Shown here: in pieces, positions 56,645 through 64,000 of the stretch
Position numbering within the stretch: position 1 is the first letter of the stretch
Layout of the letters: each line of letters begins with the position of its first letter
NCBI GenBank assembly: GCA_943371235.1
Contig: CALRTZ010000003.1
Location: forward strand, 32,138-96,137
Origin: Sphingobacterium thalpophilum
GTDB lineage: Bacteria; Bacteroidota; Bacteroidia; Sphingobacteriales; Sphingobacteriaceae
DNA: 64,000 nt
Direction of reading: 5' to 3'
Notes under the pieces: model-generated
Told to the model about the DNA's origin: nothing
Seen by the model: only the letters and a program-made list of their open reading frames with translations
Databases searched by the model: none
Program-made: the position numbers and the translations under genes

Positions 56645-56675
56645 AGTTTTGTGTTGATGGGGCAAATGTAGTAAA

Positions 56676-56714
56676 TGAATTGTGAATTGTGAGTTGTGAA
56701 TTGTGAATTGTGGG
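56676..56714. repeat. gaattgt-family array; first 35 bp identical to 38207-38241
   Basis: tgaattgtgaattgtgagttgtgaattgtgaattgtggg, 31 nt upstream of the DHS-like start. Confidence 0.9.
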
Positions 56715-56770
56715 TGCAGGAATTCAGGGACCGACATGTGTGGTTGAGATGATAAAAGGGAATACCATCA

Positions 56771-56810
56771 AGCTAGCACCCATTAGCACACTAGCATACT
56801 AGCACACTAA
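56771..56810. repeat. ctagcaca-family array, direct-repeat copy A
   Basis: agctagcacccattagcacactagcatactagcacactaa. Its first 38 nt are identical to 57053-57090. Confidence 0.9.
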
Positions 56811-56975: not shown

Positions 56976-57018
56976 ACTTAATACGGGTTAGGGTAAAACG
57001 AATATAGGAATAAATTAT

Positions 57019-57037
57019 GAATTGTGAATTGTGAATT
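57019..57037. repeat. gaattgt-family array (short)
   Basis: gaattgtgaattgtgaatt. Confidence 0.8.
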
Positions 57038-57052
57038 TGGCAGCGAAGTACG

Positions 57053-57100
57053 AGCTAGCACCCATTAGCACACTAGCATACTAGCACACTAGCACACTAA
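57053..57100. repeat. ctagcaca-family array, direct-repeat copy B (one extra 8-bp unit)
   Basis: agctagcacccattagcacactagcatactagcacactagcacactaa. Confidence 0.9.
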
Positions 57101-57166: not shown

Positions 57167-58819
57167 ATGTATTTCAAGAAAATTATTTCGCTCTCTTTAT
57201 TTTCGGTTTTAACGGTTAATGCTTTTGCGCAAGTACCGGTTTTGGTAAAAGACATTAATACTGCGGGCAACGGAAATCCGCAGAAGATTACGAATGTAAA
57301 CGGCACTTTATTTTTTGTGGGCAATACGGCGGCCAATGGAAACGAGCTATGGAAAAGTGATGGAACCGAACTGGGCACTACAATGGTAAAAGATATTAAT
57401 CCGGGAACTGCGAATCCTTCTATTGGAAAAATTACGAGTTATAATGGCCAGGTTTATTTCAGAGCATTTAACCCAACAGATGGCTACGAATTATGGAAGA
57501 GCGATGGTACCGAAGCGGGCACCGTAATACTTAAAGAATTTGCAGCAGGCAATGGAAACATAGATCCATCAAACATCATAGAATTTAACGGAAGCTTATA
57601 TTTCACAGAACGTAGCAGTACTGCAGGCGTTAATTTATGGAAGAGTGATGGTACCGAAGCAGGCACGGTATTGCTCCAAAATTTATACACCAGTGGCAAT
57701 GCAAGTAATGCTACGTACTTCGCCGTGATGAACAATACTTTGTATTTTATAGCGAGCGAAAATGCATTGTTCAGTTCCGACATTTGGAAAACAGATGGCA
57801 CTGCAAACGGTACGAGTTTATTACTTACTATGAGCGGACAAACTGGTGAATTAATTGTGGTGGGTACTAAATTATTTTTTGGCTATGCAGGCGAAGGCGG
57901 TGCGGGTACAGGTAAAGGTTTATATGTAAGTGATGGCTTGGTAAACGGTACCTATCGTATAAAAGAATTGGATTTAACGAACATGATAAACTTCCCAACG
58001 AATGGAACGGCGATATCTTTTAAAAACGAATTAATATTTACGGCAAAAGATGCTATCAATGGTGAAGAACTTTGGAAGAGTGATGGAACAGAATCAGGCA
58101 CTGTATTAGTTAAAGATGTAAGAGCAGGAATGGAAAACGGACTTGATGCCTTGCCGTTTTTAACCAAAGGAACTGCGAACGAATTTTATTTTATATCTGC
58201 AGATGAAAATGGAAACAGAGAATTGTGGGTAAGCGATGGAAGTACTGCAGGCACTACTTTGCTCGACACTCCAAATGCAGGTTCAATTAGTCCGGCGAAT
58301 TTATATGCTTACAACGGATATTTATTTTACAGAGCACGCTCTAGTGTATTTGCTACTGGCGACGAATTATGGAGAACAGATGGAACGAGAGCGGGTACCA
58401 AAATGTTGGTCGATTTTTGGCAAGGAATAAATTCATCATCGCCAAGTAATTTCTGCGGAGCAAACAATACTTTATACTTTAATGCAAACAACGGAACGGC
58501 AGGTGCAGAATTATACGCATTGGCTGTAACACCTGTGGGCACGGGGGTTTCTGAGGAGCACCTTAGTGAATTGAGGGTGTATCCGAATCCGGCGAAGCAC
58601 GTGGTGTGGATAGCGAAGAGCGGGGAACAGGGAGAGAGGAGCTTGGAGCATGGGGCGGGGAGCAGAGCTGTGCAATTTGAGATGTTTGATGTGAATGGGA
58701 GAATGGTGTTGAGAGGAGAGTTGGTGAAGGGTAGTGTGGATGTAAGCGGCTTGGAAGCGGGGGTGTATTTGATAAGGCTTGGAGATGGGAGTTATGCAAG
58801 GGTGGTGAAATCGAATTAG
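57167..58819 (+). CDS. secreted ELWxxDGT-repeat protein with T9SS C-terminal sorting domain
   Basis: Signal peptide MYFKKIISLSLFSVLTVNAFAQ (ATG 57167 preferred over GTG 57113). At least seven ELW(K/R/V)(S/T)DGTxxGT repeats. C-terminal RVYPNPAKHVV...GVYLIRL CTD. Confidence 0.8.
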   Translation: MYFKKIISLSLFSVLTVNAFAQVPVLVKDINTAGNGNPQKITNVNGTLFFVGNTAANGNELWKSDGTELGTTMVKDINPGTANPSIGKITSYNGQVYFRAFNPTDGYELWKSDGTEAGTVILKEFAAGNGNIDPSNIIEFNGSLYFTERSSTAGVNLWKSDGTEAGTVLLQNLYTSGNASNATYFAVMNNTLYFIASENALFSSDIWKTDGTANGTSLLLTMSGQTGELIVVGTKLFFGYAGEGGAGTGKGLYVSDGLVNGTYRIKELDLTNMINFPTNGTAISFKNELIFTAKDAINGEELWKSDGTESGTVLVKDVRAGMENGLDALPFLTKGTANEFYFISADENGNRELWVSDGSTAGTTLLDTPNAGSISPANLYAYNGYLFYRARSSVFATGDELWRTDGTRAGTKMLVDFWQGINSSSPSNFCGANNTLYFNANNGTAGAELYALAVTPVGTGVSEEHLSELRVYPNPAKHVVWIAKSGEQGERSLEHGAGSRAVQFEMFDVNGRMVLRGELVKGSVDVSGLEAGVYLIRLGDGSYARVVKSN

Positions 58820-58843
58820 CGAACGGGCGAATTAGCGAACTGG
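58812..58843. repeat. 16-bp tandem duplication spanning the stop codon
   Basis: cgaattagcgaacggg / cgaattagcgaactgg. Confidence 0.85.
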
Positions 58844-59053
58844 CGAGGGGTGCTTTTCGCATAAATGTTGCGTGTGAATAAGTTAATAAATAGTTAATTC
58901 GTTAGGTATTGGCACAGTAAAGTTAGTATATGGTTTAAGAATTATATAAAACTTGAATACTTATTAAAGATATTAATTGAAAGAAATATTGATGCTTTTT
59001 GGATGATTTGCTAGAATAAAATATTCTAAGTAATTTGGTAAACATCCAAAATT

Positions 59054-59737
59054 ATGAGAAACCCTAAATGGCACCGCGACGAAATTATTCTTGCTCTTGA
59101 TTTATATTTCGATAAAGATAGAGGAACAATAAGTAACACTAACGCCAAAATCATAGAGTTGTCGAAAATATTAAACTTACTACCAATATTCGAAGATAAA
59201 CCTGATGAGGTAAAATTTAGGAATGAAAATGGAGTTTGCCTAAAACTATCTAATTTTCTAGCCATTGACCCTAATTATGCTGGTAAGGGAATGACAGGTG
59301 GTTCCAAATTAGACGAAGAATTATTCTTTGAATATAAAGACAAGCTACATGAACTTAATAATATCGCAACCGAAATAAAAAAAATTACTACAGATTCTAA
59401 TTTAATAAATGACATTAAGAAAATAGAAGACGATGAATTAACGGAAACAGACAACGTTAAAGAAGGCCAAGTCATTTATAAATTACACAAGGTTAGAGAA
59501 CGTGATAAAAAAATCATAAAAGCCAAAAAAGATAAATTCAAGAAATTATACGGTAGAGTATATTGTGAAAAATGTGGCTTCGATTTCGAAAAAGTATATG
59601 GAGAAATTGGAAAAGATTTTATAGAATGTCACCATATAATTCCTTTACACAAGTCTGATTATACTAAAACTACTAGATTAGAGGATTTGATACTATTGTG
59701 TTCAAATTGCCATAGAATGGAGCATAGGAGATTGTAA
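59054..59737 (+). CDS. HNH-family endonuclease (stand-alone restriction-like nuclease)
   Basis: C-terminal CEKCGFDF...ECHHIIPL...LLCSNCHRMEH is a CxxC/HNH/CxxC zinc-finger nuclease core. The N-terminal RNPKWHRDEIILALDLYF...KFRNENGVCLKLSNFLAIDP region resembles the one I recall from predicted HNH restriction endonucleases. Confidence 0.85.
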   Translation: MRNPKWHRDEIILALDLYFDKDRGTISNTNAKIIELSKILNLLPIFEDKPDEVKFRNENGVCLKLSNFLAIDPNYAGKGMTGGSKLDEELFFEYKDKLHELNNIATEIKKITTDSNLINDIKKIEDDELTETDNVKEGQVIYKLHKVRERDKKIIKAKKDKFKKLYGRVYCEKCGFDFEKVYGEIGKDFIECHHIIPLHKSDYTKTTRLEDLILLCSNCHRMEHRRL

Positions 59738-59766
59738 ATAGTTAGTTTTAATTTGTGCAATGTATA

Positions 59767-60741
59767 TTATATAGATAATTCAATTTTATATTTTTCTATT
59801 TGTTTATACCATGTTAAATCATCTAACAAGATTGATTCATATGGATTCTGTATAATGAATGGTGTGTAATGAGGTTTATTTATTTCAAGTCTATTTATTA
59901 GATACAACCAATATTCTTCTTTTTTTCGCTTTGCCACAGAATATTCATTTCTTGACCAAAAAAAATAGGGAGTGTTTCCTTCATAAGATTTTACTTCAAT
60001 GTATCGATTTGGATACTTATCATCCTCATTATTATATGATGCAATATCATAGCCTTCATTTACAATATATTCTGCAACCCAGTCGATTATTTTTTGTTGA
60101 TTTAACCTTTTAAATTCAAATTCGAGAACATATTTTTCAGCTTCTTCTCCATAAATCTGCTGTTGCTCCATTGATTTACGAAACTCTTCAATTCCTATCT
60201 TACGATGTTTAATTTCTGGCAAAACAGTTTTATCGAACAATTTTTTATACCGCATATTGATTATGAAGTTATTTAGTGCTGTTGTTGGATGCGTTTTTAT
60301 TGCACCAAAATCAATTAATAATTGTTTGAAATTAGAGTTTTTTAACCCAAAGGCCTTATTGTTAATCTGAAGTGATTTGTAAATAATGTCATGTGATAGA
60401 TACTCAGAACAAAAAATTTTGTGAAATTCGTCATCATCTTTTAGTGTCTTAAAAAGAAATTCTACAAATTTATCTGTCATTTGATTTATACTATTCAAAG
60501 ATTCAATTATTTCGTTATTCAGAATAACAAATTTATTGTCTGTAATCAGTACTCCTGTATTAATTGCCAACTCAAGACAACCATCAAAAATACTTCTACC
60601 ATCTATCACACGATTATAGAACATTTCATCAATGTCAGTTTTTGTGTAATAGTCTCCTTTGTTATCTTTTAATGTGTTAAGCAATTCAAAGTAGTAGTTT
60701 GGAGAACCCAAATTTCCATATCTTCTAAGTTCTTTTAGCAT
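59767..60741 (-). CDS. DUF3883-like (PD-(D/E)xK restriction-endonuclease-fold) C-terminal domain protein with unassigned N-terminal half
   Basis: YGEEAEKYVLEFEFKRL...GYDIASY...RYIEVKSY...WSRNEYSVAKRKKEEYWLYLI gives a D...E-x-K arrangement. The start overlaps the SNF2 gene stop by 17 nt. Confidence 0.7.
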   Translation of the reverse strand: MLKELRRYGNLGSPNYYFELLNTLKDNKGDYYTKTDIDEMFYNRVIDGRSIFDGCLELAINTGVLITDNKFVILNNEIIESLNSINQMTDKFVEFLFKTLKDDDEFHKIFCSEYLSHDIIYKSLQINNKAFGLKNSNFKQLLIDFGAIKTHPTTALNNFIINMRYKKLFDKTVLPEIKHRKIGIEEFRKSMEQQQIYGEEAEKYVLEFEFKRLNQQKIIDWVAEYIVNEGYDIASYNNEDDKYPNRYIEVKSYEGNTPYFFWSRNEYSVAKRKKEEYWLYLINRLEINKPHYTPFIIQNPYESILLDDLTWYKQIEKYKIELSI

Positions 60742-62704
60742 AATTTGATATTAAATCACTTATAATGTCTGTTTCATCATTATTGTCGATTCTTCGAAAG
60801 AGTGGAATATCATCATTTATTATTTGTTCCATACGCTCTACTTTCATTTTAAGCCTATCATTTATTACTTCATCAACTGAATCTTTTGAAATAAAATAGA
60901 AATATTTAGTCAATTGATTTTCTTCTAGTCCAACTCGATGAATTCGATCTTTTGATTGTATAAAATTTGAGCAGTTATAGTCCCTTTCTAAATAAATTGC
61001 ATTGTGGCAACCTTTATGTAGAGAGATTGACTCAGCAACTGAAAATGGATTTGCAATTATGACATTAAAATCTTGATTTGAAGGGTCATTAAATGCTTTT
61101 ATTGTTTCTTCTCGTTCGAATTGAGGTATCTCTCCAATTAAAAGTTTTGATTTTATATTATTTTGGATTAAATAATTTGACAAATCTTTTGCATTCTGTA
61201 TAAAAATTGTCCAAATAATTACCTTTTCATTACCTCGAAGTAATTCATCTAAAAGCAAAGTTAATATGCCCTTAAATTTGGCGGGGATTTCGACATTTTG
61301 ATAATTAATAATTTTATTAAAGAACTCAGAATCATTAACAAATTCTTCAGTGTCTATTGTAAAAATTGCATTCGGGTCAAATTCACCAGTTAACTCATTA
61401 TTTTCCAAAGAGTCTTTTAATGTTTTTGATAACAGAGTTGGGTTCGTTGATGCTTGCCTTAATCGTATAAGTTTTGCTCTATTTAAAACATCTTTTACTG
61501 TTGCAGAATTATTATCCTTGAAGTGTGTTAGATATTGAGATTCAATAAAATCATATATTTCTCTTTGATGTAAATCCATTTCTATTGAAATGTACTTCTC
61601 TTCCACGGGCGGAAGGTTTAAATCGTTTTTTTTAATTCTAATAAAATATGGTGCAATATTCTCCTTTAACTCTTGTACTCGATGAGATTCTGGAGAGCTA
61701 TTGTATGTCATATCTTCCAAATTATGGTAATGAAACTTTAAAATATCTTTGAATTTGAAAGGATAGATGAATTTATATAAATTAAAAATGTCTTGGTAAC
61801 CATTGGGGACTGGCGTACCTGTTAAAATTACTCTTGATACAGCTTCTTTTGATATTTCAGTAACACTCTTTCCCCAAATACCTTCTGGGTTCTTAATCCT
61901 ATGAGCTTCATCAACTATAACCATCGTTTTATTTCGTTTCAAAAAATCAATGATGTCATTTTGATAACGATCTACACCTCCGTGAAATATTAAAGTTAAC
62001 TCATTTGAATTAGGTGAATAAAGATGCTCTAATTTTTGTTTAACTGAAATTTCATTATCTCCAGACATTCTAAATGAATTTGGGAGATGCCCAAAACATT
62101 CTAAATATTCATTTTCCCAAGGAGCAAATGAAGATAATGGACCAATAACAATAAGTTTATTTACATGACGAGGGTTGTTTTTCGATAAACTTTTCAAATA
62201 TGCATATGCACCATAGACAATAGAGGTTTTACCAGCACCTGGAACTGCAAAATTACATGAGTTTTGTGCAAATGCCATATGAAAAGATGACAGCAATTGT
62301 AATGGATAAAGTGGTCTCTTTAATGTGTTTTTTAAGATTCTCTGAAACTCATCAAATTGATCTATTAAAGATTGGTTTTCATTAAATTCGTTATTACGAA
62401 TGGCTCTGGCATTTTCACTAAATATTTCAAAGCTCTCTTCTTCTTTAATAAATGCATTTAATTCTTTTTGTGTGTTATCTGCAATTTGATAAGTGTGCCC
62501 AAATTTATTTAGTAAACTTTGTATTTCTTGAAGTATTTTAATTTTTTTCTCTTCTCGAAAAGTGATAATTAAATCAGAGTTATTAGTTGAATAACTCAAT
62601 CTTTTAAGTGACACTAAAAGTCTATTGTTTTGCAGTAATTCATTTATATCTCCCGATATTACAAATAATTTATTTTCAATATTAGTATCAATAGAGTAGT
62701 TCAT
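60725..62704 (-). CDS. SNF2-family DEAD/DEAH-box ATPase/translocase
   Basis: Motif I VPGAGKTS, motif II IVDEAHRIKN, motif III ILTGTPVPN, motif VI QSKDRIHRVG. About 135 aa of N-terminal extension of unknown function. The ATG overlaps the upstream stop (TAATG). Confidence 0.9.
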   Translation of the reverse strand: MNYSIDTNIENKLFVISGDINELLQNNRLLVSLKRLSYSTNNSDLIITFREEKKIKILQEIQSLLNKFGHTYQIADNTQKELNAFIKEEESFEIFSENARAIRNNEFNENQSLIDQFDEFQRILKNTLKRPLYPLQLLSSFHMAFAQNSCNFAVPGAGKTSIVYGAYAYLKSLSKNNPRHVNKLIVIGPLSSFAPWENEYLECFGHLPNSFRMSGDNEISVKQKLEHLYSPNSNELTLIFHGGVDRYQNDIIDFLKRNKTMVIVDEAHRIKNPEGIWGKSVTEISKEAVSRVILTGTPVPNGYQDIFNLYKFIYPFKFKDILKFHYHNLEDMTYNSSPESHRVQELKENIAPYFIRIKKNDLNLPPVEEKYISIEMDLHQREIYDFIESQYLTHFKDNNSATVKDVLNRAKLIRLRQASTNPTLLSKTLKDSLENNELTGEFDPNAIFTIDTEEFVNDSEFFNKIINYQNVEIPAKFKGILTLLLDELLRGNEKVIIWTIFIQNAKDLSNYLIQNNIKSKLLIGEIPQFEREETIKAFNDPSNQDFNVIIANPFSVAESISLHKGCHNAIYLERDYNCSNFIQSKDRIHRVGLEENQLTKYFYFISKDSVDEVINDRLKMKVERMEQIINDDIPLFRRIDNNDETDIISDLISNYAKRT

Positions 62705-63993
62705 TATAATTTTTTGCTGATTTGATAGCCAATTTGTTGAATTCGTTTAGTCTTTTCTTGGACTTCTTCAACTTCACCTGTTGGTATTTTATTCACTTCA
62801 ATGCTTTCCAATAATTCAATAATATGTGTTAGAAGTCTTGACGGGGATTTCTTTTGAAGAGAATTAAAAATTTTATCCCCTAACTCTTGTACCATTTTTT
62901 GTACTTCGGGTTTAGCAAATGCTTTATGTCCTGTCTTTATTGCTTCAAAAGTTTGAGATGCTCTTTTTATTAATTTTTCAGGTTCATCAGCAGCTCTATT
63001 ATATCCAACTAAATATTTGTGTTCACTAAGGTTCTCCAAAAAAGAACTTGTATCTTTTTCAAATTTTGAACTTTCAAAAAACAATTCATCCCTATTATTA
63101 AGATGAGCTTCAAGATTATTGGAATTAAAATCTATTTCTGGTTCTTTTGGAAGATTTTTTATTATTTCATTGTGTTTACTGGAAAAACTATTCCAAATAT
63201 CTTTATCCCCAAAAAAATGTTTTTCACTATTGCCTTCCGCCAAATTCCTGAATTCTTTACCATCATATTCATTCCTTATCCTTAAATAATCAAAAGCTAT
63301 TATTTTCAAGTCATCAACATCACTATCTGTGTAACCATCAAATGCTTTTTTACTTGATTCACCATAAAATGCATTTAACCATTTACTTAATGACAAAAAC
63401 TGATCTTCCCTGCTATCTAATTGAGTATAAATACCATCATATTCAAGATATTCAAGATAATCATCCATGACCGCCATAGTATCAAGATATTTTTGAATTT
63501 CGCCTTCAGTCTCACCCATCCAATCTGAAATGCTTTTTATAGCCTCAGCATTAGAAATTTTTGGAGTAAGTTTGTCGAATATTTGTTTTGCCTTCAAATA
63601 CTTTTCAATTGGATTATAACCTAACTTTTCATCTTCACCCATTTGATAGGTGGTTTCTAATCTTTCTATTTCTATAGGGTTTTCCTCCAGTGTGACAGGC
63701 AAAACAATGGCTTTAAAATAGCCTGTTCTATCTATAGTATTTAGTAGCATGGCTCTTCTGTTTCCATCAATTATTACCCCGTCTTTAGTAATAATTCCAA
63801 CTTTTTGCTGACCAAAATCTTTAATACTTTGTAAAGTTTTTTTATTACGATCAATTTTTGAGTCCATAAGGAGTTTCTCAATTAAGTTTCGTCCACTTTC
63901 TGTCTCTACATCTATTGCTTGATTTTGCTTTTCTAACGATTTTGTTCTACTAAGTATTCTTCCATTATACTTATTGTAAATTAGATAAGACAA
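62704..63993 (-). CDS. ParB/Srx-like N-terminal domain protein (possibly 5'-truncated by the window edge)
   Basis: LQSIKDFGQQKVGIITKDGVIIDGNRRAMLL fits the ParB N-terminal domain GxxR region, and the rest is acidic and helical. The ORF-track start at 63993 is a TTG, and the frame stays open to position 64000, so the gene may begin outside the window. Confidence 0.65.
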   Translation of the reverse strand: MSYLIYNKYNGRILSRTKSLEKQNQAIDVETESGRNLIEKLLMDSKIDRNKKTLQSIKDFGQQKVGIITKDGVIIDGNRRAMLLNTIDRTGYFKAIVLPVTLEENPIEIERLETTYQMGEDEKLGYNPIEKYLKAKQIFDKLTPKISNAEAIKSISDWMGETEGEIQKYLDTMAVMDDYLEYLEYDGIYTQLDSREDQFLSLSKWLNAFYGESSKKAFDGYTDSDVDDLKIIAFDYLRIRNEYDGKEFRNLAEGNSEKHFFGDKDIWNSFSSKHNEIIKNLPKEPEIDFNSNNLEAHLNNRDELFFESSKFEKDTSSFLENLSEHKYLVGYNRAADEPEKLIKRASQTFEAIKTGHKAFAKPEVQKMVQELGDKIFNSLQKKSPSRLLTHIIELLESIEVNKIPTGEVEEVQEKTKRIQQIGYQISKKL

Positions 63994-64000
63994 AGGAATA

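Follow-up and report, generated by a model that had tools for sequence, protein, structure and literature searches.

A widespread four-gene methyltransferase, ParB-like, SNF2 and NOV_C cassette of Sphingobacterium thalpophilum as a candidate restriction-modification-like relative of AbiR

Introduction

AbiR, encoded by the Lactococcus lactis plasmid pKR223, is classed as an abortive infection system and comprises a σ70-like protein (AbiRa), a ParB-like protein (AbiRb) and an SNF2 protein with an endonuclease-like N-terminal domain (AbiRc) (PMC13064643). It protects against phages and interferes with phage DNA replication, it needs the LlaKR2I 5-methylcytosine (m5C) methylase and is toxic without it, and the best match of its ParB-like protein is PDB 5K5D, the entry cited for AbiRii (PMC13064643). 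Here, we analyze a 64,000-nucleotide (nt) stretch of Sphingobacterium thalpophilum DNA (contig CALRTZ010000003.1; hereafter the window), which ends within an operon that codes for a ParB-like protein (gene 1), an SNF2-family ATPase (gene 2) and a NOV_C/DUF3883 nuclease (gene 3). An initial annotation of the window had proposed these three genes as an undescribed anti-phage or anti-mobile-element system, with no methyltransferase in view and with a convergent HNH nuclease gene as a possible partner. We find that the three genes form the end of a conserved cassette of four genes, the first of which encodes a C5 DNA methyltransferase (C5-MTase). In our judgement the cassette is an experimentally uncharacterised, widespread, four-gene variant, resembling restriction-modification (R-M) systems, of the AbiR type of ParB-SNF2 defence that depends on a methylase.

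Two other described systems share part of this composition. In Hma/Type-1 BR, HmaA is an SNF2-NOV_C fusion, HmaB a DUF1156 N6-methyltransferase and HmaC a DUF499 ATPase (PMC11232893, PMC12839542, PMC3710099), and the nickase activity of HmaA is needed for anti-T4 defence (PMC11232893). Menshen consists of NsnA (ParB-DUF262 plus a DNA-binding domain), the ABC ATPase NsnB and the nuclease NsnC (PMC12065111). A 2025 survey of the ParB-CTPase fold mentions neither SNF2 nor DUF3883 (PMC12704722).

Gene content and conservation of the cassette

Gene 1 is cut by the window edge, since the TTG listed as its start (63993) has no in-frame stop codon upstream. An exact-protein lookup retrieved a 5.9-kb contig that is 100% identical to the window over 5,011 nt, and on this contig gene 1 is complete, with a length of 472 amino acids and a true start 122 nt past position 64000. 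The gene upstream of it encodes a C5-MTase, whose stop codon overlaps the gene 1 ATG as ATGA. The statement that no methyltransferase was in view is thus literally true inside the window, but it is an artefact of the window edge, because a C5-MTase is encoded by the very next gene. The description of genes 1 to 3 as three coupled minus-strand genes was borne out by the open reading frames (ORFs) and by the two overlaps read directly in the sequence (Table 1).

A scan of 185,579 species genomes gave 211 confirmed relatives, and synteny was assessed from 80 retrieved loci. These loci span more than 10 phyla, and include Bacteroidota, Patescibacteria, Campylobacterota, Beta- and Gammaproteobacteria, Firmicutes, Chloroflexi, Acidobacteriota, Verrucomicrobia, Melainabacteria and Leptospiraceae, among others. 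The SNF2 gene directly follows the ParB-like gene in all 79 assessable loci, and the NOV_C gene directly follows the SNF2 gene in 73 of 76, so that the three families indeed co-occur in the same order, as the initial annotation had suggested should be surveyed. The gene directly upstream of the ParB-like gene codes for a C5-MTase in 69 of 78 loci (66 of them with the C-terminal extension described below), and a C5-MTase is at most 9 kb away in seven of the remaining nine, hence in 76 of the 78 assessable loci overall. Pairs of cassettes share 80-91% identity at the protein level versus 74-79% at the nucleotide level, which is consistent with purifying selection. The nucleotide homology between cassettes stops exactly at the stop codon of gene 3 (~59776), and the genes beyond are mostly unrelated housekeeping genes, with defence-type genes scattered among them.

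The site is variable between close strains. The nucleotide-level homology to a 97.3%-identical relative, which shares an 11-kb flank with the window, breaks at window position ~58771. In place of the HNH gene and the cassette this relative (GCA_943372925.1; locus L087, 1-5852) carries genes for a Z1 protein (961 amino acids), a DUF4420 protein (334 amino acids) and an AIPR protein (790 amino acids). The left boundary of the variable block coincides with the 3′ end of a gene for a protein with a type IX secretion system (T9SS) tail. Since a Z1-DUF4420-AIPR set takes this place in so close a relative, the site is a strain-variable hotspot of alternative restriction-type cassettes. A core, syntenic presence in all relatives, which the initial annotation had named as counting against a defence role, is therefore not what is seen.

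Other arrangements of the same families were also found. In variant genome loci, the ParB-like/SNF2 pair lies beside MutH-like or BglII-like Type II systems. Among 2.9 million viral contigs, eight carry a relative; a second arrangement is seen in these viral copies and in Streptococcus prophage Javan191, with the ParB-like, SNF2 and NOV_C genes accompanied by a convergent, non-orthologous C5-MTase, and in Javan191 a gene resembling Type II restriction endonucleases (REases) lies upstream. A phage origin of the cassette was rejected, given the rarity of viral copies, the position of the Javan191 copy at the end of its record, and the lack of PHROG matches for genes 1 and 3.

In loci L067, L068 and L069, gene 1 and/or the SNF2 gene is broken into several ORFs by apparent frameshifts or duplication, which suggests that the cassette is decaying in certain genomes. 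Many cassette-bearing metagenomic contigs measure ~6.0-6.6 kb, roughly the size of the cassette, as would follow from assembly breaks in strain-variable flanks.

Relation to AbiR

The ParB-like and SNF2 proteins of the cassette are clearly homologous, by sequence comparison, to those of Firmicutes trios with the AbiR architecture (σ70-like, ParB-like, SNF2). The profile of the ParB-like family aligned with the ParB-like protein of such a trio with an hhalign probability of 99.9% (E=3.9e-31). Gene 2 shares 30% identity over 637 amino acids with the SNF2 protein of the Brochothrix trio (E=1e-77), the N-terminal domain included, and it matches the homologue on Enterococcus plasmids with an HMM E-value of 1e-104, again with the N-terminal domain covered.

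AbiR-like trios are present on 51 Enterococcus plasmids, where they code for a σ-factor-like protein of 864 amino acids, a ParB-like protein of 405 and an SNF2 protein of 620; they are annotated only as hypothetical proteins or DEAD-box helicase, and no NOV_C gene was detected with them. One of these plasmids is pQZ076-2 of Enterococcus faecalis (locus L086, 4321-9996), and trios of this type are common among the mobilizable and conjugative plasmids of Enterococcus. The chromosomal trios of Clostridium and Brochothrix adjoin a C5-MTase and an endonuclease of the MutH/Sau3AI family, a setting that has also been described for AbiR and LlaKR2I, and in the Clostridium trio a PLD nuclease is fused to the SNF2 protein. 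On the conjugative Lactococcus lactis plasmid pIBB109_AgSa_3 (locus L097, 4002-12016), Type III Mod and Res genes are followed by overlapping, coupled genes for a ParB-like and an SNF2-like protein. Because the pair is found with different methyltransferase or recognition modules, it looks like a conserved core.

AbiR and the cassette are alike in several respects. Both have a ParB-like gene followed by a translationally coupled gene for an SNF2 ATPase of ~620-660 amino acids, including an N-terminal domain; the ParB-like proteins share PDB 5K5D as a structural match; and both appear to be associated with a C5 methylase, which in the cassette is at most 9 kb away in the 76 of 78 loci given above. 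The cassette differs from AbiR in that its C5-MTase is part of the operon, carries a C-terminal extension and is related to Sau3AI-type methylases only at the level of motifs, and in that it has a separate NOV_C nuclease gene. It is also found mainly in Bacteroidota and candidate-phyla bacteria, whereas the AbiR kind is found on Firmicutes plasmids. No counterpart of AbiRa was identified in the C-terminal extension of the MTase or in the N-terminal domain of gene 3 (hhalign probability of at most 0.1% with three σ70-like proteins), and both candidates were rejected. No relative found in the homologue search is named AbiR, and PADLOC 2.0 has no model that matches the ParB-like or the σ70-like proteins. 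The claim of an undescribed system therefore stands for the four-gene cassette, which is uncharacterised, but not for its ParB-like and SNF2 core, which is homologous to that of AbiR-type trios.

Predicted properties of the four proteins

The ParB assignment of gene 1 rests on predicted structure, because sequence searches gave nothing or only sub-threshold matches. Gene 1 alone had no Pfam match, its C-terminal half matched no Pfam family, and neither the single protein nor the family profile matched a PDB sequence; when 47 family members were scanned one by one, sub-threshold Pfam matches were obtained to ddrB-ParB (12/47) and HTH_ParB (2/47). The AlphaFold2 model has a mean predicted local distance difference test score (pLDDT) of 92.8 and a predicted template-modelling score (pTM) of 0.86. 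Its best eight PDB matches by Foldseek are all ParB/Srx proteins (probability 0.96-1.0), and the structural matches include Noc, pNOB8 ParB, KorB, Caulobacter ParB-CTPγS and sulfiredoxin. The alignments to ParB/Noc/KorB structures of N-terminal plus helix-turn-helix (HTH) domains have 219-325 columns, most of them long enough to take in the HTH. The C-terminal ~240 residues are confidently helical in the model. Gene 1 is thus predicted to be a ParB-like protein with the ParB fold.

In an alignment of 47 diverse members of the gene 1 family, N50, N53, R55, Q105, T112, N121, R122, R123, E156 and Q160 are invariant, and G120 is at least 90% conserved. The GNRR motif corresponds to the GxRR arginine motif of ParB box II, and the family pattern as a whole (IPLxxLxYNxxNGRI...GQxxxGIITxDGIIIDGNRR...LETxYQMGED) parallels ParB boxes I to III. 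The family is large, with 1,627 matches among 90% clusters; at 50% identity it comprises 943 clusters. A further paralogue of gene 1, a divergent one of 422 amino acids with 38% identity to the family profile, was observed on the minus strand of loci L065 (4956-7617) and L025 (6322-7590). This paralogue is encoded on the opposite strand, immediately upstream of a Vsr gene and the cassette, and is followed by ORFs of 272 and 182 amino acids, without an SNF2 gene; it may belong to another ParB-based module.

Gene 2 consists of an N-terminal domain of ~140 amino acids and a two-lobe SNF2 motor (Pfam SNF2-rel_dom, 3.8e-27; Helicase_C, 7.7e-10); its N-terminal ~150 amino acids had no Pfam match. 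The motifs PGAGKT (residues 155-160), DEAH (265-268), LTGTP (294-298) and QSKDRIHRxG (583-592) are at least 90% conserved among 76 family members. The best sequence matches in the PDB are SMARCA5, Chd1, ISWI and HELLS/DDM1.

Gene 3 has an N-terminal part of ~200 amino acids without a Pfam match, followed by a C-terminal PD-(D/E)xK nuclease domain of the NOV_C/DUF3883 family (Pfam, 5.1e-18; residues 201-285, window 59887-60141). Residues D232, E249 and K251 are invariant across the family, and the signature D232...E249-V-K251 is at least 90% conserved. The ParB, SNF2 and DUF3883 domain calls of the initial annotation are hence correct, as judged by AlphaFold2 and Foldseek for gene 1 and by Pfam for genes 2 and 3.

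The MTase fragment present on the identical contig carries C5-MTase motifs IX and X at its C-terminus and matches Pfam DNA_methylase (1.1e-7) and the PADLOC models MTase_II, DrmMII and DruM. Its full-length relatives, of 568-588 amino acids, match DNA_methylase with E-values of 1e-38 to 1e-41 and consist of a complete C5-MTase plus a family-specific C-terminal extension of ~200 amino acids, for which no Pfam or PDB match was obtained. Motifs I, IV (SPPC), VI, VIII and X are intact, and the signatures FxGxGG, SPPC, ENV, RxR and GNAV are at least 90% conserved. It was rejected as an enzyme of the Sau3AI/LlaKR2I type, since only the universal motifs align. In 22 loci the cassette adjoins a gene for Vsr, a T:G mismatch nuclease that acts in the repair of deaminated 5-methylcytosine and is a classic companion of active 5-methylcytosine methylases. 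This neighbourhood argues that the MTase of the cassette is active in vivo. One metagenomic representative of 749 amino acids (P0124) joins the C-terminal part of the MTase (motifs IX/X and the extension) in frame to the ParB-like protein, which weakly supports a physical coupling of the two proteins.

Comparison with other systems

Known systems were sought with PADLOC 2.0 models and, for ZorD and DrmD, with the NCBIfam cut-offs. Gene 1 had no PADLOC match, even at E≤1. Gene 2 gave weak, partial overlaps with generic SNF2 regions of ZorD, DrmD, DpdE and BrxH, and scored 54.8 bits with NCBIfam ZorD (cut-off 1500) and 54.1 bits with DrmD (cut-off 610). The partial matches of gene 3, to TmtA, PD-T4-1, PDC-S36 and the HmaA C-terminus, were confined to the NOV_C domain. 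The signature proteins of Azaca (Zac), Menshen, BREX, Dnd/Ssp, Dpd, Druantia, Hachiman, Gabija and Septu in PADLOC 2.0 were not matched by the cassette. The initial annotation, which recognized none of the systems it listed and asked for an explicit comparison with Azaca, is thus upheld against these models.

Like the cassette, Hma/Type-1 BR brings together an SNF2 motor, a nuclease of the NOV_C/DUF3883 family and a methyltransferase. However, the motor and the nuclease are fused in HmaA and encoded by separate genes in the cassette, the PADLOC HmaA model matches only the C-terminus of gene 3 (1.3e-3) and not gene 2, and in place of a DUF1156 MTase and a DUF499 ATPase the cassette has a C5-MTase and a ParB-like protein. 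Menshen shares with the cassette the logic of a ParB-fold DNA sensor, an ATPase transducer and a nuclease effector, but all three families differ, its effectors are mostly RNases, it has no dedicated MTase, and no PADLOC Nsn model was matched. An SNF2-type ATPase within a defence operon is also found in DISARM, ARMADA (PMC13463889) and, as ZorD, in Zorya, and DISARM and ARMADA contain a methyltransferase as well; the cassette lacks DrmA/DrmB (DUF1998), ZorAB and ArmC/ArmD. With components that differ in this way, membership in ARMADA, Hma/BR, Menshen or DISARM was rejected.

The cassette resembles Type I and Type III R-M systems in having an MTase for the self mark, a motor or switch driven by NTPs and a PD-(D/E)xK nuclease, and R-M systems in general in that a cognate DNA methyltransferase and a nuclease belong to one conserved unit with fixed synteny. 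It differs from Type I/III systems in that an SNF2 motor replaces the HsdR/Res helicase, the MTase is of the C5 type, and the ParB-fold subunit is without counterpart. The single-gene NOV_C defence proteins PD-T4-1 and PDC-S36 are similar in size to gene 3 and match its C-terminus (1.1e-11 and 1.1e-10, respectively), but these matches are limited to the nuclease domain, and gene 3 is embedded in a cassette (73/76 loci).

Proposed mode of action

The defence role proposed by the initial annotation is well supported by the catalytic motifs, the cross-phylum synteny, the patchy distribution, the low GC and the alternative cassette of the 97%-identical relative. We consider it probable that the cassette is a four-gene, methylation-based self/non-self restriction system. 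In this model, the MTase would mark host DNA with 5-methylcytosine at its target motif, and the ParB-like protein, probably a nucleotide-gated DNA clamp or sensor that may dock to the MTase via the C-terminal extension, would engage DNA without the mark. The ParB-like protein would then license the SNF2 motor to translocate, and the NOV_C nuclease, delivered in this manner, would nick or cut the invader. The gene immediately upstream of the ParB-like gene, be it the MTase with its extension, the σ70-like gene or the Type III Res gene, plausibly supplies sequence recognition. What we infer is the order of these events, that the ParB-like protein is a clamp or sensor and that the extension serves as an adaptor.

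Several points weigh against this interpretation or against parts of it. The cassette is known here from its genes alone, and its link to AbiR runs through architecture, annotation and context, and through trios other than that of pKR223. Only AbiR has a σ70-like component, while in the cassette a C5-MTase sits upstream. The closest neighbours in most genomes are housekeeping and not defence genes. The model of gene 3 has low confidence (pLDDT 63), so its weak matches to Hjc, the SPARDA nuclease and EcoRV can be taken as indicative only, and the single MTase-ParB fusion, P0124, could be a sequencing artefact or the result of a lost stop codon. Finally, the ParB fold is compatible with the binding of CTP, ATP or GTP and also with activity that involves no nucleotide turnover (PMC12704722, PMC13229309).

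An alternative that we regard as unlikely places the ParB-like protein in the modification arm, where it would activate the C5-MTase or load it on double-stranded DNA, so that SNF2 and NOV_C alone would restrict. The overlap of the MTase and ParB-like genes (ATGA) and their one in-frame fusion would fit such a role, and the family-specific extension of the MTase could bind the ParB-like protein. DndB and DpdB, two ParB-like proteins, partner with enzymes that modify DNA. For a DNA dioxygenase, activation on double-stranded DNA depends on a phage ParB homologue (PMC13229309). However, the ParB-like gene accompanies the SNF2 gene in 79/79 loci, even where the MTase lies elsewhere, has no extension or is not orthologous; loci of the AbiR type keep the ParB-SNF2 pair though their methylase belongs to a separate Type II system; and the pair of the Lactococcus plasmid follows a Type III Res gene to which it is coupled. 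It is because the ParB-like gene co-varies with SNF2, and not with the MTase, that we disfavour this alternative.

The cassette might also be an abortive-infection or addiction module, in which the SNF2 protein and the nuclease would be toxin-like and respond to infection or to a loss of methylation, and the MTase would act as an antidote that stabilises the cassette. The host would then be killed or arrested, rather than the invading DNA being selectively destroyed. AbiR is itself counted among abortive-infection systems and becomes toxic when its methylase is missing (PMC13064643), and the cassette behaves like a compact mobile unit, occurring in many genomic contexts. Yet any R-M system is equally expected to be toxic upon loss of its methylase, a sequence-specific MTase together with Vsr fits self-marking, and a dedicated phage-sensing domain was not found; we hold this explanation to be rather improbable.

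A housekeeping or epigenetic role, either SNF2-assisted maintenance methylation, as with eukaryotic DNMT5 or HELLS/DDM1, or ParB-type DNA segregation, is very unlikely. The best sequence matches of the SNF2 protein among solved structures are chromatin remodellers, HELLS and DDM1 included, and the ParB fold is present, but only 211 of 185,579 species genomes have a confirmed relative, the 97%-identical relative lacks the cassette, the GC of the cassette is low and its PD-(D/E)xK nuclease is invariant. As for segregation, the neighbours of gene 1 are an MTase and an SNF2 gene, and the 25 commonest families among the immediately flanking genes do not include one of the ParA type, as ParABS would call for. 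Hardly any credence is left for a three-gene, methylation-independent system working with the adjacent HNH nuclease, as first proposed from the only genes visible in the window and from the convergent HNH gene 29 bp from the gene 3 stop, since it is already contradicted by synteny: a C5-MTase is coupled upstream, HNH homologues occur at most 9 kb away in 3/80 other loci, and the homology stops at the end of gene 3.

If the cassette is a methylation-based restriction system, it represents a widespread R-M-like family that has a ParB-fold switch and an SNF2 motor at its centre and is overlooked by current PADLOC models. The family numbers at least 211 genomes at species level, and ~940 clusters of proteins at 50% identity. 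The uncharacterised cassettes of Bacteroidota and candidate phyla would be tied to one experimentally studied relative, AbiR, and the need of AbiR for a methylase would be predicted. They would offer a compact, self-contained four-gene version, with its own methylase and a separate nuclease, that is easier to dissect than the split lactococcal locus, and defence would join the growing number of non-segregation uses of the ParB-CTPase fold.

We put forward a further reading, only tentatively, in which the ParB-like/SNF2 pair is a portable restriction "engine" that had so far escaped recognition: a nucleotide-gated ParB clamp would read the methylation or recognition status that an upstream specificity module supplies, and would license an SNF2 translocase-nuclease. 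This module would vary, being a C5-MTase with an adaptor tail in the cassette, the σ70-like protein in AbiR, and Type III Mod-Res on a Lactococcus plasmid. Such an engine would constitute a new mechanistic class of ATP/CTP-dependent restriction across more than 10 phyla and would account for AbiR, a system whose mode of action has been an open question since 2000.

Neighbouring genes and other features of the window

The coordinates of the features are collected in Table 1. The guanine-plus-cytosine (GC) profile drops from ~0.38-0.42 to ~0.28 from roughly position 59000 to the end of the window, in agreement with the AT-rich block noted initially. In a scan for promoters and terminators, sites were no commoner than expected by chance.

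Table 1. Position of the cassette genes and associated features (window coordinates unless another contig is named).
Feature	Position	Strand	Basis or remark
Gene 1, ParB/Srx-fold	62704..>64000	minus	ORF list; truncated by window end
Complete gene 1	L001 777-2195		on identical contig
ParB/Srx NTP-binding-type N-terminal domain, gene 1 residues ~42-165	63628..64000	minus	starts outside window
GNRR codons, gene 1 residues 120-123	63754..63765	minus	conserved in family alignment
Rest of gene 1, ~residues 166-472: HTH-like region, then all-helical C-terminal region	62707..63627	minus
Gene 2, SNF2-family ATPase, 659 amino acids	60725..62704	minus	ORF list and Pfam
Gene 3, NOV_C/DUF3883 nuclease, 324 amino acids	59767..60741	minus	ORF list and Pfam
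TAATG stop/start overlap, gene 1/gene 2	62702..62706	minus	direct sequence reading
17-nt overlap, gene 2 stop/gene 3 start	60725..60741	minus	direct sequence reading
HNH endonuclease gene	59054-59737	plus	convergent with gene 3; 29 bp between stop codons
Strain-variable low-GC block (HNH gene and cassette)	58772..64000	none	GC profile and homology break

The HNH gene matched the PADLOC models "HNH" (5.5e-9) and Type IV methyl-directed REase (3.7e-8). Homologues occur at most 9 kb from the cassette in three of the 80 other loci (L009, L022 and L067), and the nucleotide homology between cassettes ends at the gene 3 stop codon, so the HNH gene was rejected as a member of the cassette; its adjacency, as first described, is real, but its membership in the module is not supported. 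It is probably an independent restriction gene that shares the island, and is possibly modification-dependent.

A composite repeat, in which (GAATTGT)n is followed by TAGCACAC-type units, occurs twice, ~330 nt apart (window 56674-56810 and 57009-57100), and the two copies flank a small minus-strand ORF. The first of these repeats is interrupted in the relative by an inserted HigB toxin/antitoxin pair, at the position corresponding to window 56712/56723. The gene for a T9SS-sorted protein (window 57311-58404) contains five diverged internal repeats, some of them 144 nt apart, that encode the motif ELWKSDGT, an ordinary repeat-domain architecture.

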